64,000 nucleotides of DNA from Alistipes sp. GTDB taxonomy: Bacteria > Bacteroidota > Bacteroidia > Bacteroidales > Rikenellaceae. The stretch is taken from the NCBI GenBank assembly GCA_017624955.1, contig JAGAMA010000042.1, positions 30,318-94,317 on the forward strand, in the 5' to 3' direction. Position numbers and translations under genes: made by a program. The notes beneath the pieces are model-generated. The model saw only the letters and a list, made by a program, of their open reading frames with translations. It had not been told where the DNA came from and ran no database searches. Positions 1 through 22,859 of this stretch are shown here, one piece after another; the stretch's first letter is position 1; every line of letters begins with the position of its first letter.

Positions 1-533
1 CCTCGGCCATCTGCATTCGTTACGTAGATGGTCTGCTGATTGGGAAACGATCCTGCAGCAGGGGCTAAATGGACGTTGTTGTTGACGGGTTGTTTGACCT
101 GGAAGGCTACATATTCCGTATTACCGTACTGCTTACCTTGTTTGTCAGAGATGAAAACATGACAATAATAGGTCTTGCTGTAATCTTTAATATGCACATC
201 TTCGTAGGCGACGAAAAACCAAAAGTCACTCCATACACTACTCTCGTACGGAGGAGTAAAATCGGCCCAAATGGCTACGGTGCCGCTTGTTGTGCACCAA
301 CGTCCGTCGGTATCTTTAACGCCGACCCCTTTCGGTTCGTCAAAATAGACAATGGCACTCATAGGAACATCCTTTAACCCGTCCGTTTGCATGAAAAAGT
401 GAATTTTCATGCCCAACTTTGCGTTGAGGGTAACATCCTTTTCCAACCAAATCTTATTGACCGTCACCGATTGGGCAAAGGCGATGCCTGCGGTTGTGAG
501 GAGCAGGGTGAGTGAAAGTAAAATTCGTTTCAT
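1..533 (-). CDS. hypothetical secreted protein; the C-terminal (3') part runs off the window edge
   Basis: ATG at 533-531 on the reverse strand. My own translation gives MKRILLSLTLLLTTAGIAFAQSVTVNK..., a signal-peptide-like N-terminus. The frame stayed open in the stretch I translated (533 down to about 300). It is absent from the ORF track because there is no stop in the window. Confidence 0.55.
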   Translation of the reverse strand, partial: MKRILLSLTLLLTTAGIAFAQSVTVNKIWLEKDVTLNAKLGMKIHFFMQTDGLKDVPMSAIVYFDEPKGVGVKDTDGRWCTTSGTVAIWADFTPPYESSVWSDFWFFVAYEDVHIKDYSKTYYCHVFISDKQGKQYGNTEYVAFQVKQPVNNNVHLAPAAGSFPNQQTIYVTNADGR

Positions 534-594: not shown

Positions 595-2163
595 TTAGTT
601 GAAGAAGATGTAGAGGCCGACCATCACCAGGATCAGGGCGATCCAGAGACCTGCCACCAGCACACCTGTCTTTTGGCGCTCCACCTTGTCGAAGAGCTCC
701 GTGCCCTCCTCCATGGGCGACTTGTCGAACTGCGAAATAAGCATCATCGCAATTACGAGTGCCACCCAGAGGTAGAACGAAAGCATCATGAAGTGGGGCT
801 TGGCAACGCCCTCGGGCCATGCCCAGAGGTAGATCACACCCGTACCGATGCTGAGGAGCGTTCCGAGCGTGAGGGCGAAGTTGGCGGCGCGCTTCGTGGT
901 GCGCTTCCAGAATACACCCAGCACAAAGACGGCAGCCATCGGCGGAGCGATGAAGCTCAGCACCGACTGGAAGACGTTGAAGAGGTTCAGTCCCTTAATC
1001 GAGTCGATGGCCACGCAGATCACCACCGAGAGGATAGCGCCGACCACGGTAACAACGTGTCCCATGCGGATAATCTCCTTGGTCGAGGCCTTGGGGTTGA
1101 ACTTCTTGACGTAGATATCCATCGTGAAGACGGTACTCAGGGCGTTGAGGGCCGAGCCGATCGTGCTCACCAGGGCAGCGGTCAAAACGGCCAATACGAG
1201 ACCCACCATGCCCACGGGGAAGAGGTTCTTGACCATCGTCATATAGGCCTCATCGGGGTTCGCCAACGTGGGGTAGAGGGCGAAGCAGATGATACCCGGC
1301 AGGATGTAGAGGGGCACATCCAAAATCTTCAGCCAACCCGTAAAGTTCGTACCGAGCTGACCTTCGCGGAGGTTCTTGGCAGCCAGGACGGGTTGCACCA
1401 TCGACTGGTCGGTGCACCAGAACCAGATACCCGAAATGGGGTAGCCCAGCACAATCGGCAACCAGGGGAAATCGACATCCGAGTTGGGACGGAACAGCAC
1501 CCAATAGTCGGCCGGTGTGCGGGCCACAAGCTCGTCGATGCCTCCCAATTTGTAGAGTCCGGCCACGACGATCGTACCCGACACGAAGATCAGGAGCAGC
1601 ATCTGATAGACATTGGTATAGGCTACCGCCTTCAGACCACCGAGCATCGTGAAGAAGGCCGAGATGGCCAGCAGAATCAGGGCCGACTGCCACATCGGGA
1701 TATCGAAGACCTGGCGAATCAGCACGCCGCCTGCGAAGAGCGTCAGGGCCAACCACGAGATCAGGATCGTGATCATCGTGTACCAAGCCAGGATGTTGCG
1801 GGTCGATTGACCGAAGCGCTTACCCATGAACTCGGGCAGGGTCGAAACCTTCGAGCCGAGGTAGCGGGGCGCAAAGACGAAGGCCAACATGCAGATAAAG
1901 ATGAAGGCGTACCAGGCGAAGTTACCCGATACGATACCGGTTGTGAAACCGGCCGATGCCGAGGCAATCAGCATCGAGGGGCCGACGTTGGTGCCCCACA
2001 TCGAGAAGCCGATGTGGTACCACCGCAGCGAGTTCTCGGCCAGGAAGAGCGAGCTGCCCTTCTTACGTTGGGTGCTGGCCCAGATGCCGATTGCAAGCAG
2101 AATGACGAAGTATCCGATCAGGATACCCCAGTCAAGCCCTTGCAGGTAGGATGCGTTAATCAT
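595..2163 (-). CDS. sodium:solute symporter (SSF/SGLT-like sugar transporter)
   Basis: 522 aa polytopic membrane protein. The N-terminus GILIGYFVILLAIGIWAS...SLFLAENSL.WY and the overall pattern are typical of the SSF family. Confidence 0.88.
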   Translation of the reverse strand: MINASYLQGLDWGILIGYFVILLAIGIWASTQRKKGSSLFLAENSLRWYHIGFSMWGTNVGPSMLIASASAGFTTGIVSGNFAWYAFIFICMLAFVFAPRYLGSKVSTLPEFMGKRFGQSTRNILAWYTMITILISWLALTLFAGGVLIRQVFDIPMWQSALILLAISAFFTMLGGLKAVAYTNVYQMLLLIFVSGTIVVAGLYKLGGIDELVARTPADYWVLFRPNSDVDFPWLPIVLGYPISGIWFWCTDQSMVQPVLAAKNLREGQLGTNFTGWLKILDVPLYILPGIICFALYPTLANPDEAYMTMVKNLFPVGMVGLVLAVLTAALVSTIGSALNALSTVFTMDIYVKKFNPKASTKEIIRMGHVVTVVGAILSVVICVAIDSIKGLNLFNVFQSVLSFIAPPMAAVFVLGVFWKRTTKRAANFALTLGTLLSIGTGVIYLWAWPEGVAKPHFMMLSFYLWVALVIAMMLISQFDKSPMEEGTELFDKVERQKTGVLVAGLWIALILVMVGLYIFFN

Positions 2164-2202
2164 GGTTAGTTGGTTTTAGATGGTTGTTTGTTGTTGGTTC
2201 GG

Positions 2203-3267
2203 TTAGCGGTAGCGATCGACAATCTTCAGTGCCTCGTCAATCTCTCGTTCGTTTTTGAAGTCCATCGAGAGCAACATGCCTTCGGCACCCACGTTGTCCA
2301 AGAGGGGCTCCAACTCATCGAGCGTTACCCAGTTGGCCTCCACGGATTTGCCTCCCGCCTTGATGCGGCGGTAGAGGTCGTACCATTTGGGATCACCGCC
2401 CTGCGGCTCACCCACACCGGGGGTCCACTGGATGGCGTTCAGCTCCTCAATCTCCAGAAGGGCATCGAGGTGGCGGATGGCGCCCACACCGTCGAGGTGG
2501 TAGAGCGTGTAATCCAATTTTTGGCACTGCTCACGGATGAAGGGCTGCACGAAGCGGCGATAGTCCTCCTCCGAGATCATGATCGAAATGTCGCTCTGGA
2601 GCTTGCTCACGCGGCCCGGGCCCCAAATCGAGAAGTAGCAGAAGGCCATGCCGTCATCCTCGCGGATGATGTCGTAGAGCTCGTCATAGACCTTGAAGTA
2701 GATCTCATTGACCTGCTTTAACTGATGCTCCAACAGGTCGGGGTCGATCATCGTGTCGAGCAGCACGTTGTCCGTGCCACGAATCGCAGCCAGCACATCG
2801 AGACCCTCCATCAGGTCGGGCATGCCGACATAGTAGTTGCCTTGTGCCAACTTCTTCGAGGCCTTCAACAGCTCCTTGTGGAGCTTCCAAGCGGGGTTTT
2901 CGGGATCGAAAACGATATCCTGACCCACCGCATCGGCGGGGTGAATCCAGATCGTATCGGCACCACCCTCCAGCTTACCGCCCAAGATGGCGGCCAGCGA
3001 GCCGGGGCCTAACTGGGTGTTGGCGACGGGGATAATATCGGCCTTGAGCGACGAGTGAGCCACATAGTGGTTCAGCTCCTCGGCACGCCATGCGGGGTCG
3101 AACCAGCGTTGGCTCATATCCTTCGGTGCTGCGGGGGCGGCCACCTCGGCGTGGGGCGTAACCCCCTCCTGCAGGTGCTCCCACATCGTCAGTACACAAC
3201 CCTTATGCTGCCACCAGGCGAGGTAGTTCTGCTTCGATTGCTCCCAATTTTTCTTCCAAGTATTCAT
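2203..3267 (-). CDS. cytoplasmic protein of unknown function; possible URO-D/MtaA-like TIM-barrel fold lacking the Zn ligands (uncertain)
   Basis: 354 aa with no signal peptide. It sits 8 nt downstream of GH31 in the same operon. The C-terminal region LYHLDGVGAIRHLDALLEIEELNAIQWTPG loosely parallels ILHNCGNMGQCTHAMVECGARALHFG of the MtaA-like protein at 9330-10325. The coding call is solid; the fold assignment is by eye only. Confidence 0.8.
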   Translation of the reverse strand: MNTWKKNWEQSKQNYLAWWQHKGCVLTMWEHLQEGVTPHAEVAAPAAPKDMSQRWFDPAWRAEELNHYVAHSSLKADIIPVANTQLGPGSLAAILGGKLEGGADTIWIHPADAVGQDIVFDPENPAWKLHKELLKASKKLAQGNYYVGMPDLMEGLDVLAAIRGTDNVLLDTMIDPDLLEHQLKQVNEIYFKVYDELYDIIREDDGMAFCYFSIWGPGRVSKLQSDISIMISEEDYRRFVQPFIREQCQKLDYTLYHLDGVGAIRHLDALLEIEELNAIQWTPGVGEPQGGDPKWYDLYRRIKAGGKSVEANWVTLDELEPLLDNVGAEGMLLSMDFKNEREIDEALKIVDRYR

Positions 3268-3274
3268 CGTTGCG

Positions 3275-5530
3275 TTAGAATTTCAGTCCGTTAAATGTTG
3301 CGTCAATTACAAGTTTTTCGGCCTTCGTGAGGTCCATCTGGTCGGTATGCTGCGGATCAACATCGGGGTAGAGACTGATCTCGGCACCCTCCTTGACGTA
3401 GAGCGGCATGCGCTCCAGGGGGCACTCCACACCCTTGAGCCAACGGCCACCCTCGAAGCGTTCGCCCGTGAAGAAATCAACCCAGCGGCCCTCAGGGAGA
3501 TAAACATCGCGCTTATCCTCGCTGTTCATCACGGGGGCCACGAGGAACTCCGAGCCGAAGTAGTACTCGTCGTCGATGTGCCATACCTGGCGGTCGTCGG
3601 GGTGGTGCATCAGAAGGGCACGCACCATCGGATAACCCGTCTCGGTCGAGCGGCGGGCCTCCTCCACGATGTAGGGCATCAGGCGGTAGCGCAGCTTCCA
3701 CCAACGCTTCACGAGCGGAGCGATCGCAGGGTAGTGCCACGGCTCACGCTTGAACGACCCGTGGTAGCGCATGTGCGAGGTGAAGACACCGAACTGCGTC
3801 CAGCGCATGTAGACCTTCTCGTCGAGGGGCGAGTTCATGAAGTTGGGCAGCGAGTGGAAGCCCGGCACATCGTGGCTCCAGAAGCCGAAGCCCGAAAGAC
3901 CGAAGTGCAGACCACCCTTCACCGAACCGGCCATGCCGTCCCAGGTCGAGGCCGAGTCACCGCCCCAATGCAGGGGGTAGCGTTGACAGCCTGCCCAGGC
4001 CGAGCGGGCCCAGACGATGCCGTCGCCCGTCACCTCCTTCGTAATCTCGTAGGCGGCCTTCTGATAGAGCAGGGCGTAGAGGTTGTTCAGCTCCTCGGGG
4101 CTCATGGCGTAGTAGTCGGCATCCATGTGGATATTCTCGCCAAAGTCGGTCTTGATGCAGACCACACCCATATCCAACAGCTCCTTCAGGAGTCCCTTGT
4201 ACCAGGCCGTAGCCTTCGGGTAGGTGAAGTCGATCGTGCCGGCATAATCCAGGGTCGAGAAGTTCGAGCCCTCGGCACGCTCCTGCTCCTTCGTCAGGGG
4301 TGCAATGTAGCGGTTCTCCTTCGCCTCGGTGATCTGCTCGGCACCCTCGGCGACATAGGGAAGCTGCCAGAGCGATACGCGGTAGCCATCCTCCTTCAAT
4401 CCCTTGAGGAAGCCCACGGGGTCGGGGAAACGCTCGGGGTTGAACTTCCACTCGCAGAGCCAATCGGTGCGGAACCAACCCGTGTCGAGGTGGATCACAT
4501 CGCAGGGGTACTTCTCACGGCGCAGGCGGTCGCAAATCTCCTGCACCTCGTCGGCCGAGAAGTAGGTCATGCGGCTCATCCAGATACCGAAGCTCCAGAG
4601 CGGGGGCAGCGACGGGAAGCCCGTCAGCGTGCGGTAGTTGTAGAGGATGCGCTCGGGCGACGAACCACCGATGAGGTAGGCATCCACCACGGGGGCTTCG
4701 TTGAGGAACTGCACCGAGCGGGTCGAGTGGTCGGCCAACGAGAGCTTGCAGTAGCGGCTCGTGTGGTAGAAGACACCATACAGGCGGCTCGAGAGGTAGA
4801 AGGGGATATTCTTGTAGGCACGGCGGTTGTTCACGCCCTGACCATCCTGGTTCTTGAGGTAGAAGGTGTGACCCGAGAGGTCCATCTTCGTAAAGCGCTC
4901 TCCCGTACCGGCAAAGCACTCGTCGTGCTTACACTCGAACGAGAGGGTGGCGCGATCCACCTTGCCCTCCGTCTCGCAGTAGGCCAGCGGCAGGGCATCG
5001 TAGCGCGGGGGCGAGAAGTGGTCGTAGGCCGAGAGGCGCACGGGCTTCTCCTTCACACCGTCGGGGTAGATCGTAAGGTCGATCGTGGGCTGCGGAGCAG
5101 GTTGCAGGTCGCTCCAGAAGTCGATCACGGCCTCCTTCAGGTTCAGCTCGCCACGGAGCTTTCCGTTTGCATCGTGGAACTGCCACACATCGTCGGCCAA
5201 GGTGGCCGTGAGGGGCAGCTTTTTGACCGAGGGGGCATACGCGAGCATCTCGCTTTCGTCACTCGGCGCTTGGCCTTCGGTCGAGAGGAAGAGGCGCACG
5301 ATCTCCTCGCCATAGGCGCGCAGGATGAGCGTGTGGCTGACCTGCTCACACTGCGTGTCGGCTGCCATGTCGGCCGCCTTGAGCTGCTTCTGGAAGGGCA
5401 CCGTGATATGGATGTCGCCCTCGACGGCCTCGACCGAGGTGGGCTTGTAGGCTTTCCAAAGGGCCTCGTCACGCTGTAGGTCGGTGTCGAAGTCCAGGAA
5501 ATCAAAAAGGTGGTAATTGGTCTGTTTCAC
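3275..5530 (-). CDS. glycoside hydrolase family 31 (alpha-xylosidase/alpha-glucosidase, YicI-like), cytoplasmic
   Basis: 751 aa with no signal peptide. GH31 signature regions are present: IHLDTGWF, VCIKTDFGE (nucleophile region) and HWGGDSASTWDG. Confidence 0.9.
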   Translation of the reverse strand: MKQTNYHLFDFLDFDTDLQRDEALWKAYKPTSVEAVEGDIHITVPFQKQLKAADMAADTQCEQVSHTLILRAYGEEIVRLFLSTEGQAPSDESEMLAYAPSVKKLPLTATLADDVWQFHDANGKLRGELNLKEAVIDFWSDLQPAPQPTIDLTIYPDGVKEKPVRLSAYDHFSPPRYDALPLAYCETEGKVDRATLSFECKHDECFAGTGERFTKMDLSGHTFYLKNQDGQGVNNRRAYKNIPFYLSSRLYGVFYHTSRYCKLSLADHSTRSVQFLNEAPVVDAYLIGGSSPERILYNYRTLTGFPSLPPLWSFGIWMSRMTYFSADEVQEICDRLRREKYPCDVIHLDTGWFRTDWLCEWKFNPERFPDPVGFLKGLKEDGYRVSLWQLPYVAEGAEQITEAKENRYIAPLTKEQERAEGSNFSTLDYAGTIDFTYPKATAWYKGLLKELLDMGVVCIKTDFGENIHMDADYYAMSPEELNNLYALLYQKAAYEITKEVTGDGIVWARSAWAGCQRYPLHWGGDSASTWDGMAGSVKGGLHFGLSGFGFWSHDVPGFHSLPNFMNSPLDEKVYMRWTQFGVFTSHMRYHGSFKREPWHYPAIAPLVKRWWKLRYRLMPYIVEEARRSTETGYPMVRALLMHHPDDRQVWHIDDEYYFGSEFLVAPVMNSEDKRDVYLPEGRWVDFFTGERFEGGRWLKGVECPLERMPLYVKEGAEISLYPDVDPQHTDQMDLTKAEKLVIDATFNGLKF

Positions 5531-5561
5531 AGTTATTTGGGTTTAGTTATTTGGCTTATGC

Positions 5562-7385
5562 TTAATATTTTACATCGGGCAGCGCCAACGCGCGGCGATT
5601 CATCTGCGGCGAGTTCTCGCCCTCGAAGCGAATCTTCGGGCCCGGGTTGTTGAAGCCGAACGAATCCTTCACCTCGCACCAGTTGTTGCGGATCGTGTAG
5701 CCGTCCGTCGCCGCATCGAGGTAGATGCAGAAGGCGCGGTGGTTCGTGGCGTAGGGCGCTTCGGTGGGGGCGTAGATGATGTTATTTTCGATGAGCGAGT
5801 TGGGCTGATTCGAGAGGGTGTAGATGCCTCCCGTGTCGTAGAGCTGACGGGCATAGTTGCGCACCGTGTTGTGGGTGATGCGGTTGCGCTGCATGCCGGT
5901 CTTGTGCTTCGTCCAGCCCCAGCCTACGGCAATGGCCGAGTAATTGACCCCATCGACTAAGTTGCGCGTGATCGTCACGTCGTGCACATAGCCGCAGCCG
6001 ATGCCGACTGCGCCCCAATCCTCGCGCGTGCAGTTCGTGATGCGGTTATCGGCAAGCGTAAGGTAGGAGCAGAAGCCCTCCTTGGAGCCGATTGCGTTGT
6101 AGGGGATATGCACCTCGGTCGGGCCCTCGCCAAACGAACCGGCCAGGAGTGCCGTGCCGCCGATGTTGCGGAAGGTGCAGGCGGTGACGGCCGAGTGGTG
6201 GACATTCGTAGCCAAATCCAATCCCGTCGAGCCGAGGGCGACAAACGAGCACCCGTCGAAGGCGATGTGGCGGGCATTGACGACCGATACGGCCGCCTCG
6301 GGACGGAGGAGCCATGCCTGATTTTCGAGGTTCTCATCCCACGCAAAGCCCGGCTTGTCGTAGAGCTTGTAGCCGTCGATAAAGGGGAATCCGCCCTGCA
6401 GGGTCACATGCCCCGCCTCCGAGGGGCGATTCCAGGCCGTGTCGGCAAAGGTGATGCCGCGGAAAGTGATGTACTCCACCGACTTTTTCGGTGCGCCCTC
6501 GATCGTCATGAGGCGCTCCAGGTGGGGGATATAGACCGTCGTTTTGTTCGGGTCGATCGCAGGGTCTTTGGCGAAGAGGTAGATTTTGCCCGTAGCCCCC
6601 TCCTGCCACCACTCGTAGTTCTCGTTGAGCAGCTCGCGCGCGTTCATGAGCATATAGGAGGAGTTGCCCCGCTCCTCGCCAATGACGGGCTGCGGCCAGG
6701 GGTGCTCAAACTCCAGGTGGCTCTCGGGTTCGAGGAACGACACTACGGCCTTCTCGCCCTCGTAGCGCATCTCCTTGACACGCAGGATGGCCGTGGCCCA
6801 ACGCTGATGTACCATCATCTCCAACCCCTCGGCTTTCTCCAGTCCCTTGATCGTGGGCTTGGGAATGGTGATGGTGCGGTTTTGCGTATCGAAGGCGATG
6901 ATGCGCTGCATCTTCCCCTCGCCAAACTCATTGGCGCGGAAGAGCTTGCCGCCAAAGCCCCAGAGCTGGCGCGTGAGGATCGGACGACCGTGCTGTTTCG
7001 GGGCATCGGTCACCCAGCAGTTGCCCTCCTTCGTCCAATTTTTCAGGGGCATGCTGCCGACGATAAAGACCTTGCCTTCAGCACCTTCGTCGGCCATGAG
7101 TGTCGTGGGCGAAAGCGCCGTGCCGCTATCCTCGGGACGGAGGTAGATCGTGCGATCGAGCGTGTAACGCCCCGCCGCGAAGCGAATCTCGATGCCGCCT
7201 GCGGTGCGCTCATCAGCTGTGCGTCGCCACTCGCGTGCCATCTTCAGGGCGGCATGGGGCGTGCGTAGGGGGGCGTTTTTCGTACCCTCGGCACGGTCAT
7301 CGCCCGTGGGCGAAACATGGATCGTACCCGCCAGGAGCAGGGTCGGCATACAAAGGCCTGCAAGGAGCATCAGGAATCGTTTCAT
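5562..7385 (-). CDS. secreted right-handed parallel beta-helix protein (probable glycosidase or lyase; family not assignable by eye)
   Basis: 607 aa. Signal peptide MKRFLMLLAGLCMPTLLLAG. The N-terminal IHVSPTGDD...G....PL motif and repeated N/G-rich turns (e.g. ITNCT, ITRNLVDG, ITHNTVRN, IENNIIY) are typical of beta-helix repeats. Confidence 0.8.
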   Translation of the reverse strand: MKRFLMLLAGLCMPTLLLAGTIHVSPTGDDRAEGTKNAPLRTPHAALKMAREWRRTADERTAGGIEIRFAAGRYTLDRTIYLRPEDSGTALSPTTLMADEGAEGKVFIVGSMPLKNWTKEGNCWVTDAPKQHGRPILTRQLWGFGGKLFRANEFGEGKMQRIIAFDTQNRTITIPKPTIKGLEKAEGLEMMVHQRWATAILRVKEMRYEGEKAVVSFLEPESHLEFEHPWPQPVIGEERGNSSYMLMNARELLNENYEWWQEGATGKIYLFAKDPAIDPNKTTVYIPHLERLMTIEGAPKKSVEYITFRGITFADTAWNRPSEAGHVTLQGGFPFIDGYKLYDKPGFAWDENLENQAWLLRPEAAVSVVNARHIAFDGCSFVALGSTGLDLATNVHHSAVTACTFRNIGGTALLAGSFGEGPTEVHIPYNAIGSKEGFCSYLTLADNRITNCTREDWGAVGIGCGYVHDVTITRNLVDGVNYSAIAVGWGWTKHKTGMQRNRITHNTVRNYARQLYDTGGIYTLSNQPNSLIENNIIYAPTEAPYATNHRAFCIYLDAATDGYTIRNNWCEVKDSFGFNNPGPKIRFEGENSPQMNRRALALPDVKY

Positions 7386-7408
7386 AGGAAAGTGTTTGAT
7401 AAATCAAA

Positions 7409-7416
7409 CAAAGATA
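7409..7416 (-). promoter_or_regulatory. Bacteroidota -7 box (TATCTTTG) for the beta-helix/GH31 operon
   Basis: Exact TAnnTTTG match 24 nt upstream of ATG 7385, preceded by an AT-rich TTAA-repeat tract. Confidence 0.5.
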
Positions 7417-7420
7417 CGAA

Positions 7421-7460
7421 AATGAATTAAGAATTAAAAATTAAAATTAAGAATTAAAGG
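7421..7460 (-). repeat. AT-rich TTAA-repeat tract (reverse orientation), part of the promoter cassette
   Basis: aatgaattaagaattaaaaattaaaattaagaattaaagg is the reverse complement of the ttaatttttaattcttaatt-type tracts at 8547-8584, 12210-12248 and 26241-26274. Confidence 0.8.
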
Positions 7461-7550
7461 GAGCTAAGGGGGACTAAAGAAAATTAAGGGGGGGGCTAAC
7501 GCACCCCCCCCCTCCTTAGCAACCTTTAGCAACCTTTAGCAACCTTTAAT
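7455..7550. repeat. imperfect long hairpin built from CTAAAGG-type units around a G8/C9 core
   Basis: The left arm carries gctaaggg, actaaag and attaagg. The centre is G8-ctaacgca-C9. The right arm carries ccttagc and three copies of cctttagc. Related tracts lie at 11963-11992 and 46318-46366. Confidence 0.75.
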
Positions 7551-7586
7551 CCACAACCGCCCACAGTACCACCAACCGTCCACTAC

Positions 7587-7674
7587 CTTCCCACCCTCTC
7601 TCTCTTCTCCTGTCACAAGTGTCACAGGTGTCACAGGTGTCACAAGTGTCACGCCCTGTGACACTGTGACACTG
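7587..7674. repeat. polypyrimidine + (GTCAC)n-GCCC-(GTGAC)n module, left copy of an inverted pair
   Basis: A 28-nt exact match (ctcctgtcacaagtgtcacaggtgtcac) to the reverse complement of 8177-8268. It is itself a hairpin centred on gccc. Confidence 0.85.
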
Positions 7675-8045
7675 CGGCACGAGCAGAAAGTACAACCATT
7701 GAACTTTTGCATGCCTTACGGCTCACACCCACGATCGGTCGTGGGCAAGCACTGCTGCCTGGTCGCATCGTGCTGCATGTGCTTATATAAGAACTAATAT
7801 ATATAAATATTATTTATAATTATTAGGTGTGTATAGGCTTCGCTATCGACTCACCCTATTAGACTTACGGCAAGCACGGTTGCCTTGGGTAACTACGCGA
7901 CAAGTCGGTGTCGTAGTGCGTAGGCTGTCGTGTTGTGCCGTATGTAGTGTGTAGGGTAGCGTGTTGTGTGGTGGGTGAAACCACGGCCACGCTATCGTAC
8001 AATTATTGAACCTGCTTGTGGAGCGGTTTGGGTAGCTCCGAGGGA

Positions 8046-8110
8046 GTAACCAAGTAACATAGTAACATTGTAACAGGGGGTGTACCCGTGTTACTGTGTT
8101 ACGATGTTAC
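8046..8110. repeat. hairpin built from GTAACA units
   Basis: gtaaccaagtaacatagtaacattgtaaca - gggggtgtacccg - tgttactgtgttacgatgttac. Confidence 0.75.
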
Positions 8111-8176
8111 GAAAGAGGACTGGGCCCACTGGGGCTACTGAGGCCACTGGGCCAACTGAATAATTCTTAATTCCAG

Positions 8177-8268
8177 GGTGTCACACTGTCACACTGTCAC
8201 AGGGCGTGACACCTGTGACACTTGTGACAGGAGAGGAAAGAGGAGAGAGCGAAGAGAAAAGAAAAGAG
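8177..8268. repeat. (GTCAC)n-GGGC-(GTGAC)n + polypurine module, right (inverted) copy
   Basis: Its reverse complement aligns with 7587-7674. Two 9-nt units present in the left copy are missing here. Confidence 0.85.
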
Positions 8269-8325
8269 TTGAACGTTATGAGCAACGACCTCATTAGCAC
8301 CACCAGCGGAGCTGTAGCGACTAAG

Positions 8326-8363
8326 CCTCCCTTATCAAAGGGAGGTTTGGAGGGATTGTCTAT
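8326..8363 (+). repeat. S2 module, short form
   Basis: cctcccttatcaaagggaggtttggagggattgtctat. It has the same ends as the long form at 25917-26031 but lacks the ~80-nt interior. Confidence 0.8.
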
Positions 8364-8406
8364 ATCTCTTTCTTAAATAATTACTAATTACGCATACTTC
8401 TCGTCT

Positions 8407-8519
8407 CAGCCTTTTGAGGCCACCGCAGGTGGCTTTGAAAACGAGTAGCCACCGCCAAGCTCGCTTGGAGGGTGGCTGCACGTTTACAAAACAATTGCCC
8501 ATAGGCAACCAAAAGGCTG
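8407..8519 (+). repeat. S1 four-helix structured module, copy 1
   Basis: The closing stem cagcctttt/aaaaggctg encloses three hairpins. It is homologous to 26077-26194, with the structure conserved despite sequence divergence. Confidence 0.8.
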
Positions 8520-8546
8520 CAAAGGCCAAACGCCACGCCCACCCCA

Positions 8547-8584
8547 CAATTCTTAATTTTTAATTTTTAATTCTTAATTTTTCT
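8547..8584 (+). repeat. AT-rich TTAA-repeat tract, part of the promoter cassette
   Basis: caattcttaatttttaatttttaattcttaattttt. Confidence 0.8.
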
Positions 8585-8587
8585 TTT

Positions 8588-8595
8588 TATATTTG
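8588..8595 (+). promoter_or_regulatory. -7 box (TATATTTG) for the corrinoid operon
   Basis: Exact TAnnTTTG match 42 nt upstream of ATG 8637, preceded by a TTAA-repeat tract. Confidence 0.5.
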
Positions 8596-8636
8596 TATGA
8601 TTAAACCGCTAACAACAACAATAAACCAATAACACT

Positions 8637-9308
8637 ATGAACGAAATTCTTGAAAAACTCTTTACCTGCATCGAATTTGGAAAGATCAACACCGCATCGC
8701 CCTATCCGCCGCAGATGCGCGGCCAGGAGGGTGCCATGGAGCTCACGAAGCAGGCACTCGATGCCGGCATCGCCCCCTCGGAGATTATGGATTCGGCGCT
8801 GATTCCCGCCATGACGCGCGTGGGTCAGAAGTTTACCGAAGGTCAGGTCTTCGTGCCGCAGATGTTGCTCTCGGCCAAGGCAATGAATGCCGCCCTGACC
8901 CATATCAAGCCCTTCTTCCAGTCGGGTGAGGTGCAGCGCAAGGGTACCTTCATTATCGGTACGGTGTTCGGTGACCTGCACGACATCGGCAAGAACCTCG
9001 TCTGCATGATGGTCGAGGGTGCCGGTTGGGAGGTGGTGGACCTCGGCGTAGATGCTTCGGCCGAGAAGTTCCTCGCAGCCCTCGAAGAGCACCCGGGTGC
9101 CCACGTTGGTCTTTCGGCCCTGCTGACGACGACGATGACCAACATGAAGACCATCATCGACAAGGTGCACGAGACGCACCCCGAGGTGAAGTTTATCGTG
9201 GGTGGCGCTCCCGTGTCGGCCGAGTTTGCCAAGGAGATCGGTGCTGACGGTTACGCCGCCGATCCGCAGGACGACATCAAGATTCTGGAGAGCTTCCTGA
9301 ACGCCTAA
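8637..9308 (+). CDS. corrinoid (cobalamin-binding) methyl-carrier protein, MtaC/MtbC/MetH-B12-domain-like
   Basis: 223 aa. Helical cap region ALDAGIAPSEIMDSALIPAMTRVGQKFTEGQVFVPQMLLSAKAM. DxHxxG motif GDLHDIGKN (D113-G118, nt 8973-8990). SxL (SALLTTT) and GG (IVGGAPV) motifs of the base-off/His-on B12-binding fold are also present. Confidence 0.9.
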   Translation: MNEILEKLFTCIEFGKINTASPYPPQMRGQEGAMELTKQALDAGIAPSEIMDSALIPAMTRVGQKFTEGQVFVPQMLLSAKAMNAALTHIKPFFQSGEVQRKGTFIIGTVFGDLHDIGKNLVCMMVEGAGWEVVDLGVDASAEKFLAALEEHPGAHVGLSALLTTTMTNMKTIIDKVHETHPEVKFIVGGAPVSAEFAKEIGADGYAADPQDDIKILESFLNA

Positions 9309-9329
9309 CGACTTAATATTGAACACACC

Positions 9330-10325
9330 ATGAAAAAGTGGATCGATGCGCTCATGATGAGCGAAAAGCGTGTCGCTGTGCCGATTATGACCCACCCGGG
9401 CATCGAGTACATCGGACGAACGGTGCGCGAGGCGGTGACCGACGGTGAGGTACACGCCGCTGCCATTGAGGCGCTGGCCAAGCGTTATCCCTCGGCTGCC
9501 TCGACGGTCATCATGGACCTCACGGTCGAGGCCGAGGCCTTTGGTGCCAAGATTCTGATTCCCGAGGAGGAGATTCCGACCGTCACGGAGCGCCTGGTGT
9601 CGGATGCCGCATCGGTGGAGGCGCTGCAAGTGCCTACGCTGGAGGCGGGTCGTGTGCCCGAGTACCTCAAAGCCAACCGCCTGGCCGTGGAGAAGATCAC
9701 CGACCGCCCCGTCCTGGCAGGTTGCATCGGCCCCTTCTCGTTAGCAGGTCGCCTGTACGACATGAGCGAGATTATGGTGGCCATCTACATCGAGCCCGAT
9801 GTGATCATGGCCCTCCTGGATAAGTGTACAGCCTTCCTCATCGACTACTGCAAGGCGCTGAAAGCGACGGGTGTTGCAGGTGTTGTGATGGCCGAGCCGG
9901 CTGCAGGTTTGCTCTCGGACGAGGACCACATGGTCTATGCTACGCCCTATGTGAAGCAGATCGTGGATGCCGTGCAGGACGATGATTTCACGGTCATTCT
10001 GCACAACTGCGGCAACATGGGTCAATGTACCCACGCCATGGTCGAGTGCGGTGCGCGTGCGCTCCACTTCGGCAACCTGGTCGATATTCCGCAAGCCCTC
10101 CAGGAGGTGCCCGAGGAGATGCTCGTGATGGGCAACCTCGACCCCGTGAATGTGATTCAGCAGGCTACGCCCGAGGCGGTGGAGGCCGCTACGACCGACC
10201 TGCTGGAGAAGACCGCCGGGGCGAAAAACTTCGTCATCTCGACGGGTTGCGACCTGCCCCCTGCTGTACCCGAGGCCAACATCGAGGCCTTCTTTGCGGC
10301 TGTGGATAAGTACAATGCACGATAG
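9330..10325 (+). CDS. URO-D family methyltransferase, MtaA/CmuA-like (methylcobamide-dependent), with putative Zn ligands
   Basis: 331 aa. Family-typical segments AEAFGA, MAEPAAG, ILHNCGN and ISTGCDLP. His225-x-Cys227 and Cys307 match the spacing of the His-x-Cys...Cys zinc site known from MtaA. Confidence 0.85.
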   Translation: MKKWIDALMMSEKRVAVPIMTHPGIEYIGRTVREAVTDGEVHAAAIEALAKRYPSAASTVIMDLTVEAEAFGAKILIPEEEIPTVTERLVSDAASVEALQVPTLEAGRVPEYLKANRLAVEKITDRPVLAGCIGPFSLAGRLYDMSEIMVAIYIEPDVIMALLDKCTAFLIDYCKALKATGVAGVVMAEPAAGLLSDEDHMVYATPYVKQIVDAVQDDDFTVILHNCGNMGQCTHAMVECGARALHFGNLVDIPQALQEVPEEMLVMGNLDPVNVIQQATPEAVEAATTDLLEKTAGAKNFVISTGCDLPPAVPEANIEAFFAAVDKYNAR

Positions 10326-11031
10326 GGTGGAACGCGCATTTCATACCTACCGTTTTCCCTATGGCGAGGTCTTGCCCTCGCTCGATGAGCTTGCTCGGTA
10401 TCTTCACATGGAGGAGGATACCGAGCATCCTGCTTATTGCTATATGAAAGAGCGCCTTGCGGGGCTTACATCAAGTGATTTGGAGGCTGTGGGAGGCTAT
10501 GCGATCGGCACGATCGAGGGGCTCGATTTGCAGGGCGGAACGCTTACGGTCGAGGGCACGACTTTCGAGGTTGGAGCGCAGGTTTGCGGCTACCTGAAGG
10601 AGGCCACCGAGGCGGCACTTTTCCTCTGCACGGCAGGTGCTCTGTTCTCGGACGAGGCGCATGCGCTGAACGCGCAGGGGGAGTTCCTGGAGGCCTACAT
10701 CATCGATGCCATCGGCTCACTCACGGTGGAGCGTGCGATGGATAAAATCCATAAGGCGCTGGAGGTGGAGCAGGCTGCGCGCGGGATGAAGATCACGAAC
10801 CGCTACAGCCCGGGCTATTGTAATTGGCCGCTCAAAGACCAGCGACCGTTGTTTGCCTTCGTGGGCGAGAACCCCACGGGCATCGCCCTGAGTGAATCGT
10901 GCCTCATGCACCCGATAAAATCGGTCAGTGGCGTGATCGGCATCGGCACCACGGCGCGCCGCCGCGCCTACGGCTGTGTCATCTGCCAAAACAAAACCTG
11001 CATCTACCGCCGCCTGGTGCAGAAGGGGTAA
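10315..11031 (+). CDS. methionine-synthase (MetH) activation-domain-like protein; putative corrinoid reductive reactivation factor
   Basis: The ATG at 10315 overlaps the upstream stop by 11 nt; the track ORF begins at TTG 10294. RYSPGYCNWP resembles the RxxxGY SAM-binding motif of the MetH activation domain. The C-terminal CxxCxxxxC cluster is CVICQNKTC. Confidence 0.75.
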   Translation: MHDRVERAFHTYRFPYGEVLPSLDELARYLHMEEDTEHPAYCYMKERLAGLTSSDLEAVGGYAIGTIEGLDLQGGTLTVEGTTFEVGAQVCGYLKEATEAALFLCTAGALFSDEAHALNAQGEFLEAYIIDAIGSLTVERAMDKIHKALEVEQAARGMKITNRYSPGYCNWPLKDQRPLFAFVGENPTGIALSESCLMHPIKSVSGVIGIGTTARRRAYGCVICQNKTCIYRRLVQKG

Positions 11032-11131: not shown

Positions 11132-11219
11132 GGAGAGGTGGGTGAGTGGCTGAAACCACCGGTTTGCTAAACCGACGTACCTGATTAGGGTACCACGAGT
11201 TCGAATCTCGTCCTCTCCG
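11132..11219 (+). tRNA. tRNA-Ser (anticodon GCU), type II with long variable arm
   Basis: Folded by hand. Acceptor GGAGAGG/CCTCTCC; 3-bp D stem with a GG loop; anticodon loop TTGCTAA. Variable arm GTACC-tgattag-GGTAC. T arm ACGAG-TTCGAAT-CTCGT. Discriminator G; no encoded CCA. Confidence 0.9.
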
Positions 11220-11246
11220 CAAAAGGGCAAACGCCCCGGCGAACGA

Positions 11247-11270
11247 CCTCTGCTTTTGCAGAGGTTTTTT
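11247..11270 (+). terminator. Rho-independent terminator after tRNA-Ser
   Basis: CCTCTGC-tttt-GCAGAGG followed by TTTTTT. Confidence 0.75.
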
Positions 11271-11369
11271 GTTTTTAGGCGGGGATGTTTGCGAGTTTAT
11301 TCGTGTAACTTCCCGCCTAAAAACAAAAACACTCCCGTTGGGAGTAGTTCGCGTAGGGCGTTTGGCTTT

Positions 11370-11509
11370 TGCAAGGATGCCTCCGGCAGGAAAGAGAAAG
11401 GGCTCGCTTTAGCGAGGCCAATTTCGTCCTCTCCACCCTTCGATAAAGGGCATCCTTGCAAAAAGCAACCCTTTTGCGGAGAAGGACATAGACAATCCCC
11501 CTAAATCCC
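11370..11509 (+). repeat. M3 module, tandem copy 1 (~140 nt)
   Basis: tgcaaggatgcctccggcagg...gggcatccttgca...cttttgcggagaaggacatagacaatccc. Nearly identical to 11690-11819; I count two substitutions and one A-position shift. Confidence 0.85.
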
Positions 11510-11689
11510 CCTTTGATAAGGGGGACTTCAAACTTGCGGACCCCGCGGGAGCGCAGAGAAAGGCGTAGCGAAGCAGGCTTGCCTGCGCAGCAGCCAATCT
11601 CGTCCGAAGAGTCCGCTTCAACAAACCGTTGGCGGAGAGAACTCCTACAATCCACCCCAACCCCTCCTTTGATAAGGAGGGGCTTGAGA

Positions 11690-11819
11690 TGCAAGGATGC
11701 CTCCGGCAGGAAAGAGAAAGGGCTCGCTTTAGCGAGGCCAATTTCGTCCTCTCCGCCCTTCGACAAAGGGCATCCTTGCAAAAGCAAACCCTTTTGCGGA
11801 GAAGGACATAGACAATCCC
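11690..11819 (+). repeat. M3 module, tandem copy 2
   Basis: See 11370-11509. Confidence 0.85.
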
Positions 11820-11925
11820 TCCAAACCTCCCTTTACGGCGATAAATCGCCGTGACTGCTTGCGCGCCTCGGTAAAGTCTGCAAGCAGCCTCTACACTCGG
11901 CTGTTGCAGCAGTTGATAAGGAGGG
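11807..11925 (-). repeat. S2 module, long form (reverse orientation)
   Basis: Its reverse complement aligns end to end with 25917-26031. A short form in the same orientation lies at 11497-11525. Confidence 0.8.
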
Positions 11926-12004
11926 GCTTGCAATGCGGACCCCGCGGGAGCGCAGAGAAAGGCAACTAAAGGTTGCTAAGGGTTGCTAAAGGTCATCGGG
12001 CTTT

Positions 12005-12094
12005 GGGGCTGAGGCCACTGCGCCCACTGCGCCTACTGGGGCTACTGAAAAAAGTCAGTCGCCCCAGCTGCCCCAGTGGGCCCAGTAGGCCCAG
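12005..12094. repeat. hairpin built from GGCCCACTG-type units
   Basis: ggggctgaggccactgcgcccactgcgcctactggggctactg - aaaaaagt - cagtcgccccagctgccccagtgggcccagtaggcccag. A related one-armed tract lies at 8120-8157. Confidence 0.75.
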
Positions 12095-12137
12095 ACTCAT
12101 GACCCGCCGACCGTCAGCCACCTTCCAACCCCCTCTC

Positions 12138-12201
12138 GTGTCACCGCCTGTCACTATGTGTCACACCTGTCACGCCCTGTGACACGGTGACAGCGTGACA
12201 C
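12138..12201. repeat. (GTCAC)n-GCCC-(GTGAC)n hairpin, third copy of the family
   Basis: gtgtcaccgcctgtcactatgtgtcacacctgtcac-gccc-tgtgacacggtgacagcgtgacac, flanked by C/T-rich runs as in 7587-7674. Confidence 0.8.
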
Positions 12202-12209
12202 CCCCTCCC

Positions 12210-12248
12210 TTAATTTTTAATTCATAATTTTTAATTCTTAATTCTTTT
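12210..12248 (+). repeat. AT-rich TTAA-repeat tract, part of the promoter cassette
   Basis: ttaatttttaattcataatttttaattcttaattctttt. Confidence 0.8.
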
Positions 12249-12251
12249 CGC

Positions 12252-12259
12252 TATCTTTG
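12252..12259 (+). promoter_or_regulatory. -7 box (TATCTTTG) for the pectin operon
   Basis: Exact TAnnTTTG match 24 nt upstream of ATG 12283, preceded by a TTAA-repeat tract. The flanks are nearly identical to the 7409-7416 cassette. Confidence 0.5.
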
Positions 12260-12282
12260 TCTTGATTATACCTAAACCTACT

Positions 12283-13698: not shown

Positions 13699-13699
13699 C

Positions 13700-14878
13700 A
13701 TGAAGAGAATCTTTCTTTTGGGCGCTCTGGTAGCGATGCTTTGCGCCTGCACCAAGACTGAGGAGCGCGTTTACCGCGTTTCGGTCGAGGGTGCCAAGAC
13801 GGATTGCCCCGTCGTAATCAGCGAAGTGCCCGCCTGGGCGCAGTCGGTTGTCGTGACAGCCGAGGGCGAGGAGATCGCCTCGCAGTTGGATAAGTGCCTC
13901 GCGGAGGCCGCCTTTGTGGCCGATATCGAGGGCTCGAAGGAGTTTACCGTAACCTTCTCGGAGAACCCCTCGACGAAGGAGTACGCCCCCCGCACCAATG
14001 CCCAGATGTGGTGGAAGACGGGCGACGAGGAGAACCCCTATGAGGAGAAAGATACCCTCTTCTCGTTCAAGGACGACATGTACCGCAAGCTGCACCACCA
14101 CGGACCGGCCATCGAGTCGGAGTGGGGTGCTTATCGCGTCTATTTCGACAAGAAGCAGACAATCGACACCTACGGCAAGAAGAAGCTCCAGCTCGAGCTG
14201 CGCCAATCGATGTGGTACTCCACGCCCGAGCAGCTGGCCGAGGGCTTTGGTCACGACAACCTGCGTGTCTTCGGCTCGATCGGTGTCGGCGTGCTGAAGG
14301 GCTGGGACGATGAGAAGAAGCAGATGATCCACATCACCGACTTCAAGCGCCGTGAGGCCCGCGTTCTGGCCAAAGGCCCCGTGCGTGCCATTATGGAGAT
14401 GGAGGTCGAGGGTTGGAACTACTGTGGTAAGGAGCTCAACATGACCTCGCGCTACACGATCTATGCCGGTCATAGCGATGTGGTGGTGGAGAACTTTATC
14501 GAGGGCGACTTCACGGGTCTGAAGTTCGTGACGGGTGTGATGAAGATGCTCGACACGAAGTCGATCAAGGAGGAGCGCGCCGTGGCACAGATCGGCTGCG
14601 ACCACCCCGAGAACGACTACGAGAAGTGGCCCAAGGAGACCGTGGCGCTGGCCGTGGCGCTGCCCGAGGAGGTGGAGATCCTCTCGGCCGAGGATGATCA
14701 GCTGAGCTACCTCTACCAGCTCACGCCCAACGCCGAGGGCGAGATTTCGTACCACTTCGACATGAATTGGCGCAAGAGCTCGTGGCTCGATGGCATGACG
14801 GATGAGGAGCTGCTGACCGATGTGCTGAAGAAGGCCAAGGCAGCTGCCGAGCCGATTGCGGTGGAGCGTGTAAAGTAA
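13700..14878 (+). CDS. lipoprotein, DUF4861-like (pectin/hexuronate-locus associated)
   Basis: Lipobox LGALVAMLCAC. It is paralogous to 32271-33398, sharing for example the (A/V)EGEEI(A/P)SQ motif in the N-terminal region. The DUF4861 assignment is from memory of that family, not a search. Confidence 0.7.
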   Translation: MKRIFLLGALVAMLCACTKTEERVYRVSVEGAKTDCPVVISEVPAWAQSVVVTAEGEEIASQLDKCLAEAAFVADIEGSKEFTVTFSENPSTKEYAPRTNAQMWWKTGDEENPYEEKDTLFSFKDDMYRKLHHHGPAIESEWGAYRVYFDKKQTIDTYGKKKLQLELRQSMWYSTPEQLAEGFGHDNLRVFGSIGVGVLKGWDDEKKQMIHITDFKRREARVLAKGPVRAIMEMEVEGWNYCGKELNMTSRYTIYAGHSDVVVENFIEGDFTGLKFVTGVMKMLDTKSIKEERAVAQIGCDHPENDYEKWPKETVALAVALPEEVEILSAEDDQLSYLYQLTPNAEGEISYHFDMNWRKSSWLDGMTDEELLTDVLKKAKAAAEPIAVERVK

Positions 14879-14921
14879 CGGAAATAACTAATAATCAAAC
14901 AAATAACAAAACAAAACTGCT

Positions 14922-16592: not shown

Positions 16593-16625
16593 ACCAAGAC
16601 ATTAACCTTAAAACTACACTTTTTT

Positions 16626-18455: not shown

Positions 18456-18470
18456 TAGTGTTCGTACACC

Positions 18471-22856: not shown

Positions 22857-22859
22857 AAG

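Follow-up and report, generated by a model that had tools for sequence, protein, structure and literature searches.

The 64-kb window analysed here, the whole stretch of an Alistipes sp. contig on which all coordinates are based, carries a seven-gene module (595-11031) made up of two divergently transcribed operons (Table 1). The minus-strand operon encodes a beta-helix glycosidase of glycoside hydrolase family 141 (GH141), a GH31 enzyme, a 354-aa protein that we name MT354, and an SSF symporter, and the plus-strand operon is a corrinoid cassette of three proteins. This gene content points to a candidate route for a methylated plant-wall glycoside, in which MT354 would remove the methyl group. 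The minus-strand genes are separated by 31, 7, and 39 nt in the list of open reading frames (ORFs); the tight packing described in an earlier sequence-only reading therefore stands, with gaps of 7-39 nt where 8-39 nt had been given. The GH31 ORF has a GTG start, and its N-terminus agrees with that of the Bacteroides thetaiotaomicron orthologue. In the translations, a signal-like hydrophobic N-terminal segment (MKRFLMLLAGLCMPTLLLAG) was found in GH141 only, as the same reading had proposed; GH31, MT354, and the three cassette proteins have no such segment. MT354 is 98% identical at the protein level to a copy from a goat-caecum Alistipes metagenome-assembled genome, and a near-identical contig is present in GCA_965331955.1.

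Table 1. Features of the seven-gene module and its borders in the 64-kb window.
Feature	Coordinates	Strand	Remarks
SSF sodium:solute symporter	595-2163	-	operon's last conserved gene; proposed inner-membrane glycoside importer
MT354, 354 aa, cytoplasmic, MtaA/URO-D-like TIM-barrel fold (predicted)	2203-3267	-	proposed methyl-ether-sugar:corrinoid methyltransferase, donor side ('MT I')
GH31, YicI-like, candidate α-xylosidase, cytoplasmic	3275-5530	-	orthologue of BT_0339 / PDB 5f7c
GH141 beta-helix glycosidase	5562-7385	-	signal peptide, periplasmic or secreted; operon's first gene; BT_0338 clade
Divergent intergenic spacer, 1251 nt	7386-8636	.	heptad arrays and TAnnTTTG boxes at both ends
Corrinoid (cobamide-binding) protein, methyl carrier	8637-9308	+	B12-binding_2 and B12-binding; DxHxxG
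MtaA-like URO-D-family methyltransferase	9330-10325	+	Zn ligands H-x-C...C; acceptor-side ('MT II') or second donor-specific enzyme
MetH-type reactivation protein (AdoMet-binding activation domain)	10315-11031	+	reductive re-methylation of oxidised Co(II) corrinoid
tRNA-Ser(GCT)	11132-11220		Rfam match

MT354, the corrinoid cassette and the conserved module

MT354 gave no match to Pfam, NCBIfam, or PDB sequences, either as a single sequence or as a 62-sequence profile, and its family comprises 2082 clusters at 50% identity (E ≤ 1e-3). An AlphaFold2 model built from the 62-sequence alignment (pLDDT 96.9, pTM 0.93) found its best Foldseek matches in Methanosarcina mazei MtaA (4ay8/4ay7, E 2e-7 to 6e-7, probability 1.00, TM 0.60-0.63), followed by four URO-D structures and also MetE. 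On this model MT354 is predicted to have the MtaA/URO-D fold, so that the sequence-only reading of 2203-3267 as a possible second URO-D-fold protein is right at the fold level, and the fusion of its orthologues to corrinoid-binding domains points the same way. Pfam URO-D (PF01208) matched 22 of the 62 MT354 relatives weakly (best 5e-6) and did not match the window protein. A comparison of the MT354 family with the URO-D protein of the window by hhalign (single sequence or 40-sequence profile) was not significant, and the relationship between the two proteins is therefore claimed at the fold level only. The residues W19, W107, D226, H257, D259, and G260 are invariant in the MT354 family. H257-L-D259-G260 aligns to the H-x-C-G zinc motif of MtaA in a profile alignment that is colinear but non-significant, and H-x-D-G in place of H-x-C-G would be consistent with an enzyme that activates an ether oxygen and not a thiol.

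The gene fusions of MT354 suggest on which side of the methyl transfer it acts. A scan with a 16-sequence alignment, one genome per species, yielded 80 MT354 loci (numbered with the prefix L), 47 of them with full 10-kb flanks. Orthologues at 72-75% identity are mostly 601-aa proteins with C-terminal B12-binding_2 and B12-binding domains (Bacteroides type). The 995-aa protein P0122 is composed of MT354, a homocysteine (Hcy) S-methyltransferase domain (PF02574, 4e-83), a B12 cap, and a B12-binding domain; a Hcy domain separates MT354 from the corrinoid domain in 57 of the 80 species-representative loci (among L018-L086; e.g., L022 10001-12838). A more distant relative, P0172, has the order Pterin_bind, B12, MT354. 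The fusions thus place MT354 with corrinoid domains together with either a homocysteine module, the folate module being absent, or a pterin-binding module, and in the MT354-B12 and MT354-Hcy-B12 proteins MT354 stands at the position of the folate module of MetH. With homocysteine as the methyl acceptor, MT354 should therefore be the donor-side ('MT I') enzyme, and we regard it as likely that it is a corrinoid-dependent methyltransferase of this kind. The acceptor is probably homocysteine in most lineages, a point missed by the sequence-only reading. Coupling of MT354 to corrinoid proteins is seen both in the fusions, which most orthologues have, and in the neighbourhoods, where a corrinoid domain occurs within 10 kb in 46 of the 47 full-flank loci. 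The 64-kb Alistipes window contains no Hcy domain, and the domains are separate proteins there. In a neighbour-joining tree of MT354 domains, the Prevotella sequences are split by gene arrangement, which is not separable from host phylogeny. The MetH-like chimera of about 1000 aa, whose activation domain is encoded separately, is also a candidate methionine synthase with a donor other than methyl-tetrahydrofolate (methyl-THF).

The divergent corrinoid cassette is real, since Pfam and NCBIfam identify a corrinoid protein, a URO-D/MtaA-like protein, and a Met_synt_B12 protein. The corrinoid protein matches B12-binding_2 (9e-19) and B12-binding (1e-25) and has the corrinoid-protein motif as GDLHDIGK; its score against TIGR02370 (methyltransferase cognate corrinoid protein) is 172.5 bits, below the cut-off of 215.3. 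Its domain is the one that is fused to MT354 in Bacteroides and Prevotella. The URO-D protein (Pfam URO-D 1.5e-61) aligns with M. mazei MtaA (4ay7) at LHNCGN/LHICGN and STGCD/APGCG, which include all three zinc ligands. It stays below the NCBIfam cut-offs for PRK06252 (167/244 bits), TIGR01463 (145/235.4), MtaA (126/400), and MtbA (138/600), and is predicted to be a divergent MtaA/MtbA relative and not a coenzyme M (CoM) methyltransferase. A search for its homologues gave near-identical Alistipes orthologues only, and no fusions, among the 120 matches listed. The activation protein matches the C-terminal part of the Met_synt_B12 profile only (1.2e-6, 28.6 bits against a cut-off of 25), and its B. 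thetaiotaomicron orthologue gives 7e-19 and 68.7 bits.

Partner genes within ≤10 kb of MT354 were counted by tblastn with the window proteins in the 47 full-flank loci. Besides the corrinoid domain, GH31 and SSF were each found in 39 of these loci, GH141 in 35, the activation protein (ACT) in 32, and the URO-D protein (UROD) in 31; GH141, GH31, and SSF occurred jointly in 35 and all six partners in 26. The module was found across Alistipes, Bacteroides (BT_0338-0343), Phocaeicola, Prevotella, and Muribaculaceae. Its arrangement in Alistipes is divergent, with MT354 and the corrinoid protein unfused, while Bacteroides and Phocaeicola have GH141 > GH31 > MT354-B12 > SSF > < ACT < UROD, and many Prevotella have MT354-Hcy-B12, ACT, and UROD upstream of GH141 > GH31 > SSF. 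The set stays intact through rearrangement and gene fusions, which is therefore strong evidence of shared function, and we are confident that the seven genes form one module. The functional link of the two divergent operons, which the sequence-only reading had assumed, is shown by this conserved synteny and gene fusion across Bacteroidales.

In B. thetaiotaomicron, the GH31 of the module (locus L040) gives 1775 bits to 5f7c and is about 98% identical to it, as judged from the alignment; this gene, BT_0339, is annotated as an alpha-xylosidase. BT_0338 has been named as the second GH141 of B. thetaiotaomicron (PMC8264420), and BT_0340/0342/0343 were listed only as 'Mta' corrinoid proteins, without characterisation (PMC8941943). 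After the module, L040 (15388-19997) encodes a GntR-HTH/periplasmic-binding-type regulator, a PFL-like glycyl-radical enzyme, and a 440-aa ORF, for which a connection with the metabolism of 1,2-propanediol formed from fucose is conceivable. More distant loci were found in environmental JGI metagenomes: L093 (366-9018) and L094 (1-9162) encode a LacI regulator, an ABC sugar transporter in place of SSF, a URO-D protein, a GH31 of the same clade, and two tandem MT354 paralogues that are 36% and 26% identical to the window MT354. Another MT354 relative is located near a GH31 and an AraC regulator. Judging from these loci, the pairing of GH31 and MT354 is old and extends well outside Bacteroidales.

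The glycosidases, RG-II neighbours and a proposed route

The beta-helix enzyme, for which the sequence-only reading had suggested comparison with families active on rhamnogalacturonan II (RG-II), belongs to GH141, the family of BT1002. It matches Pfam GH141_M (8.6e-52) and Beta_helix, aligns over its full length with PDB 5mqp (BT_1002; 455 bits), and has the right-handed beta-helix with a beta-sandwich insertion domain that marks the family. The catalytic pair D523/D564 of BT1002 corresponds to D517 (YDTGG) and D557 (YLDAA) of the window protein, both Asp (BT1002 numbering from PMC10154630; the PDB chain is offset by 5 residues). Previous work showed that BT1002, the founding GH141, releases 2-O-methyl-D-xylose-α1,3-L-fucose (2-O-Me-D-Xyl-α1,3-L-Fuc) from RG-II chain A (PMC10154630). 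One possible target of the window GH141 may be the chain-A variant that contains L-galactose (L-Gal).

GH31 contains all three GH31 Pfam domains with the KTDFGE and WGGD blocks, in agreement with the sequence-only reading, and the YicI residues D416 and D482 are conserved in it, as are K414, R466, W479, F515, and H540. It gives 1265 bits to PDB 5f7c and about 370 bits to YicI, to which it is 33% identical. The proposal that it is an α-xylosidase is plausible: the catalytic and most pocket residues are kept, but the score is below the equivalog cut-off of the NCBIfam alpha-xylosidase model, and F277/C307/F308 of YicI are replaced by T/T/G. The same signature is found in the distant GH31 of the metagenome loci, which is 47.6% identical to that of the window, and is by alignment conserved throughout this GH31 clade. 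The symporter that closes the operon, as had been stated, matches Pfam SSF (1e-55) and TIGR00813 (268 bits), and its co-location with MT354 was counted above.

The route that we propose builds on the family and fold assignments, gene fusions, synteny, and RG-II-specific neighbours computed here. GH141 would trim a chain-A-type fragment of RG-II in the periplasm and release a small methylated glycoside, for which 2-O-Me-D-Xyl-α1,3-L-Fuc or its L-Gal variant is the best candidate, and the SSF symporter would bring it into the cytoplasm. There MT354, which we infer to be the one of the two URO-D-fold proteins that takes this substrate, would load the O-methyl group onto the corrinoid protein in its Co(I) state. 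From the corrinoid the methyl group would pass to a thiol, in most Prevotellaceae to homocysteine through the fused Hcy domain, with methionine as the product, and in Alistipes and Bacteroides probably by way of the zinc-containing MtaA-like URO-D protein. The MetH-type activation protein would repair oxidised corrinoid, and the cytoplasmic GH31 would split the demethylated α-xyloside into xylose and fucose for central catabolism. Demethylation is presumed to come first because retaining α-glycosidases as a rule require the 2-OH group and because MT354 is tightly coupled to the GH31 clade. The predicted localisation fits this route, with GH141 alone exported and the cobalt chemistry and GH31 in the cytoplasm. 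We give the full route with 2-O-Me-Xyl-α1,3-Fuc as substrate, our best hypothesis, a probability of about 0.5. The four-step route of the sequence-only reading (release, import, demethylation, and cleavage) gains from the GH141 assignment, the MT354 fold, and the operon link, but its promoter argument fails, its GH141 falls in the BT_0338 clade, and the order of demethylation and cleavage is only presumed.

Neighbouring genes connect the module with RG-II. In Prevotella loci L022/25/42/43, a gap of 8 nt separates the MT354 fusion gene from an upstream gene for a GH139-GH78 fusion of 1450 aa (L043 5640-9992; also L022, L025, L029, and L042), which gives 747 bits to PDB 9hyq, one of two GH139 2-O-methyl-L-fucosidase structures; further upstream are GH106, a SASA-type esterase, and a GH2 fragment. 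In L020/45/56, the module is preceded by a BT_1020-like GH143/GH142 protein and GH78. Six loci have L-fucose isomerase (FucI) next to the module, and four have a FucP-like MFS transporter there. A trio of zinc alcohol dehydrogenase, Amidohydro_2 protein, and aldo-keto reductase adjoins the module in 10-11 loci from Alistipes and several Prevotella, among them that of the window's own genome, where the trio stands just beyond coordinate 1 (L006 12742-16912), after a 367-aa ORF. We take this trio to resemble the L-galactose pathway of Phocaeicola vulgatus (Bvu0219-0222), L-Gal being one of the sugars of RG-II. Within the window, the module is set among genes for pectin utilisation (GH28, PL1, CE8/CE12, GH88/105, and UxaC). 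In a Flavobacterium RG-II polysaccharide utilisation locus (PUL), GH31_3 is placed beside GH141 at its end, and in P. vulgatus redundant GH141 copies are differentially expressed on RG-II (2026 preprint); P. vulgatus carries the module (L030). On balance, we favour RG-II as the source of the substrate.

Two observations on these loci stand apart from the route. The GH139-GH78 protein joins 2-O-methyl-L-fucosidase and α-L-rhamnosidase domains, which are separate enzymes in B. thetaiotaomicron. A DHDPS-family aldolase and a second SSF are present beside the module in L018, L020, L021, L027, L036, L045, and L050 (e.g., L050 13575-14513 and L018 15805-17292), in some loci beside the BT_1020-like GH143/142, and could salvage Kdo or Dha, keto-deoxy sugars of RG-II that B. 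thetaiotaomicron reportedly also secretes unused.

With the module and its chemistry unchanged, the donor for MT354 could instead be free 2-O-methyl-L-fucose (2-O-Me-Fuc) released by GH139. GH31 would then cleave the methylated xyloside directly, or some other α-glycoside, and the URO-D protein may be the 2-O-Me-Xyl methyltransferase, giving two donor-specific enzymes with one corrinoid carrier. The position of the GH139-GH78 gene, which directly precedes the MT354 fusion in L022/25/29/42/43, agrees with this, as do L020/27/45/56, which have MT354-Hcy-B12, ACT, UROD, and FucI, with GH141, GH31, and SSF absent within 10 kb. A URO-D protein encoded beside Hcy-domain fusions is not needed there as the acceptor enzyme and could be a second donor-specific methyltransferase, e.g., with one enzyme each for Me-Xyl and Me-Fuc, and RG-II does give two methylated dead-end products. 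However, in Alistipes, Bacteroides, and many Prevotella, GH31 and SSF are the immediate neighbours of MT354 on its two sides within a single operon, L093/L094, from which GH139 is absent, also combine MT354 with a GH31 of the window's clade, and the URO-D protein keeps the thiol-activating H-x-C...C zinc site typical of an acceptor-side MtaA. We consider this donor unlikely.

Several findings weigh against the proposed route to 2-O-Me-Xyl-α1,3-Fuc. The window GH141 is 49% identical to the BT_0338-like protein of B. thetaiotaomicron and 39.5% to BT1002, all 59 of 59 module-linked GH141s are nearer BT_0338, and in the listed loci they are just 33-45% identical to BT1002; by this comparison the orthologue of the window GH141 is BT_0338, which is uncharacterised, and not BT1002. 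GH31 scores 478 bits against the alpha-xylosidase model PRK10658, for which the equivalog cut-off is 606, and T/T/G stands in place of F277/C307/F308 in the window, B. thetaiotaomicron, Prevotella, and distant L093 orthologues, at positions that we take to be the specificity residues of YicI on the C5 side of the pocket. MT354 occurs without GH141, GH31, or SSF nearby in 8 of the 47 full-flank loci, and no corrinoid protein was found on the contigs of the distant loci L092-L094. The MT354 family has no conserved Cys and with it no Cys zinc ligands as in the H-x-C...C site of MtaA, and the co-occurrence of the URO-D protein with Hcy-domain fusions makes its role ambiguous. The leaving group would be poorer than a phenolate, and the literature searched gave no precedent for corrinoid-dependent cleavage of an aliphatic sugar methyl ether and no paper linking these genes to sugar demethylation.

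A further objection comes from B. thetaiotaomicron, which has the full module as BT_0338-BT_0343. Wild-type cultures on RG-II secrete 2-O-Me-Fuc and 2-O-Me-Xyl-α1,3-Fuc, and a pathway for either is neither known in B. thetaiotaomicron nor confirmed in other gut microbes (March 2026 preprint). According to published work, this organism cleaves all RG-II linkages but one, and its three reported RG-II PULs do not include the module. The sequence-only reading had named 2-O-Me-Xyl-α1,3-Fuc as the uncleaved linkage, and later papers, including the 2026 preprint, confirm this. Because these products accumulate despite the full module, the module of B. thetaiotaomicron is either not induced by RG-II or aimed elsewhere. 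In addition, BT_0338 was up-regulated in mucin co-culture (PMC8264420).

These observations lend some weight to a methylated α-glycoside from a source other than RG-II, such as another plant, algal, or host glycan, in which case the RG-II neighbours would reflect general clustering of plant-cell-wall genes. Such a target would account for the unused RG-II products and the rise of BT_0338 with mucin; the GH141 and GH31 clades are both uncharacterised and the GH31 pocket is unlike that of YicI, and in the environmental loci L092-L094, MT354, URO-D, and GH31 occur together with ABC sugar transporters on contigs that lack pectin genes. We nevertheless judge it rather unlikely, as the RG-II-restricted GH139, BT1020-like GH143/142, and GH141, together with GH106 and GH78, adjoin the module in arrangements that are independent of each other, genes of fucose catabolism are repeatedly found there, and the GH141 copies of P. 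vulgatus respond differentially to RG-II.

The pectin genes of the window also bring methanol into consideration. The corrinoid proteins could form an MtaB/MtaC/MtaA-type methanol system that passes methyl groups from methanol, set free by pectin methylesterase, to homocysteine or another thiol, with GH141/GH31/SSF as a separate xyloside pathway. A corrinoid protein, an MtaA-like protein, and an activation protein are components of the methanol:CoM system, two CE8 pectin methylesterases are encoded in the window, and methanol is the obvious methyl compound of pectin breakdown. Yet MT354 is unrelated to MtaB, it lies between GH31 and a sugar transporter in most lineages, and it accompanies GH31 even where pectin genes are absent; methanol requires no transporter, and CE8 is not consistently beside the module. 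A methanol system is accordingly quite improbable.

The spacer, its repeats and the neighbouring genes

The spacer between the operons (7386-8636) is full of 7-10-nt tandem arrays. Two inverted arms (7402-7446 and 8558-8602) are 84% complementary, and in each a TAnnTTTG box, which matches the Bacteroidota -7 promoter consensus, follows AT-rich heptad repeats; the promoter-proximal arrays extend over about 7387-7463 and 8538-8602. The heptads and the TAnnTTTG element also precede the pectin operon (12205-12260) and dnaG (26240-26265). The sequence-only reading had placed both operons behind the same duplicated promoter cassette, and this cassette is present as sequence, but it is a generic promoter feature of this genome, and its occurrence before the pectin operon and dnaG means that it is no evidence of specific co-regulation. 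The shared cassette was therefore rejected as such evidence; co-regulation cannot be read from this DNA, and a functional link must rest on other evidence. Likewise, the 1.25-kb repeat region is present with 1251 nt, but it is lineage-specific, just 170-290 nt separating the two operons in four related Alistipes. A chance adjacency of two functionally unrelated operons would agree with the generic promoter element and the lineage-specific spacer. It is effectively refuted by the MT354-corrinoid fusion and by the occurrence of the seven-gene set in at least five Bacteroidales families in differing orders, and is hardly credible.

Short 7-10-nt tandem arrays are a general property of the intergenic DNA of this genome, and a repeat block of about 1 kb with short tandem arrays and inverted repeats, including TGTCAC 9-mer arrays, is confined to this species. 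The array units in 7386-8636 and 11256-12260 include (TTAGCAACC)3, (TGTCACAGG)4-5, (ACTGGGCCC)4, and GTAACA-type 8-mers. An inverted-repeat pair (7597-7680 and 8178-8252, 88-95% complementary) encloses about 500 nt, resembling the insertion of a miniature inverted-repeat transposable element. Repeat modules of the spacer recur upstream of the pectin operon (11958-12260), and the TGTCAC arrays are found solely at these three operon starts within the 64 kb, and solely in this species. Downstream of tRNA-Ser(GCT), a 145-nt direct repeat (11370-11514 and 11690-11834, 94% identical) is accompanied by repeated 30-nt units (11535-11564 and 11934-11963). Rfam gave no cobalamin riboswitch or other regulatory element in the two intergenic regions, and its matches other than the tRNA were chance miRNA-model matches on repeats. 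A scan for sigma-70 consensus promoters and terminators gave counts near shuffle expectation, with a model that does not cover Bacteroidota promoters.

Downstream of SSF, the 367-aa ORF (1-526, minus strand) has no Pfam match and is cut by the window start. On the other side of the module, a plus-strand pectin operon (12262-25732), which is without SusC/D, encodes a 478-aa secreted putative esterase (weak S9 match), DUF4861, and GH28, as well as two DUF4988 surface-type proteins with collagen-like GxY repeats, one of them fused to a pectate-lyase-like C-terminal region. It also encodes a further PL1-like protein, its PL1 type being assigned by sequence, CE12-CE8, and GH88/105. More genes of this kind, for pectin and uronates, are present at 32271-34993 and 41589-44242 (a second DUF4861, a UxaC glucuronate isomerase, a second CE8 pectinesterase, and GH43). 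SusC/D-like ORFs were found neither in 1-32 kb of the window nor among the recurrent neighbour clusters; by the SusC/D-based definition, the locus is not a PUL.

Relation to known systems and biological meaning

The RG-II degradome of B. thetaiotaomicron (Ndeh et al. 2017; BT1002 GH141, BT0984 GH139) resembles the module in several respects: GH141 opens the operon with its catalytic Asp pair kept, GH139, GH143/142, GH106, and GH78 flank the module in Prevotella, and the proposed substrates are the two methylated products that the degradome leaves over. Unlike the degradome, the module is not part of the three reported RG-II PULs, lacks SusC/D, and would bring in cobamide chemistry in the cytoplasm, which the published pathway does not have. 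With YicI/YicJ of Escherichia coli it shares a cytoplasmic GH31 and a cation symporter for an imported α-xyloside, with the catalytic Asp pair and most pocket residues kept. The GH31 enzymes are, however, only 33% identical, T/T/G occupies F277/C307/F308, and the transporter is SSF instead of GPH.

The O-demethylases of acetogens and Desulfitobacterium (MtvABC, vanillate, guaiacol) consist of methyltransferase I (MT I), a corrinoid protein, methyltransferase II (MT II), and an activating enzyme, and act on aryl methyl ethers. The module likewise combines a substrate-specific loader, a second methyltransferase that unloads, and a dedicated Co(II) reactivation, and P0172 has the classical Pterin_bind-B12-MT I arrangement. 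Unlike those enzymes, the module would use an aliphatic sugar methyl ether as donor, with a donor enzyme family that has no Pfam model, its acceptor would be homocysteine or another thiol and not THF, and reactivation would depend on a MetH-type S-adenosylmethionine (AdoMet) domain and not on a RamA-type ATPase. P0122 has Hcy, B12 cap, and B12-binding in the order of MetH, with the Met_synt_B12 protein encoded alongside, but the pterin-binding module for methyl-THF is absent and MT354 is N-terminal instead.

MtaA of the MtaABC methanol:CoM system (4ay7) gives MT354 its closest structural match (TM 0.61) and the URO-D protein its closest sequence match, whereas MT354 has H-x-D-G where MtaA has H-x-C-G; to our knowledge, Bacteroidales make no coenzyme M. 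MtgBCD of Ruegeria pomeroyi also uses a cobalamin methyl carrier common to nutrient demethylation and methionine synthesis, with a quaternary amine donor (glycine betaine), an MttB superfamily enzyme, and other organisms and ecology (PMC12478193). The module belongs to a known kind of system, corrinoid-dependent methyl transfer; its donor-enzyme family and MetH-like chimeric architecture are new, and its substrate class is probably new.

We tentatively suggest, as a possibility somewhat short of even odds, that MT354 founds an unrecognised cobamide-dependent family that cleaves aliphatic sugar methyl ethers. Together with the BT_0338-clade GH141, the GH31 clade, and a transporter, it may constitute the missing gut-microbial route by which the last RG-II linkage, and perhaps 2-O-Me-Fuc as well, is broken down, with a MetH-like chimera in most Prevotellaceae and a B12-dependent use of fibre. 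Every step of the route is directly testable, because the purified disaccharide has already been produced (2026 preprint).

The module, which is present in many abundant gut and rumen Bacteroidales, is a gene-level candidate for the one RG-II linkage and the two methylated sugars for which no catabolic route is known. RG-II is the most complex known plant glycan, and its breakdown by gut Bacteroides is a textbook case. If the route is true, sugar methyl ethers would be a new substrate class, and MT354 a new enzyme family, in cobamide-dependent methyl transfer. Fibre degradation would be tied to B12 availability and, via the Hcy-domain fusions, to methionine supply, with methyl groups of the plant cell wall passing directly into methionine in most Prevotellaceae. 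Finally, BT_0338-BT_0343, including the orphan structure 5f7c, would obtain a function.

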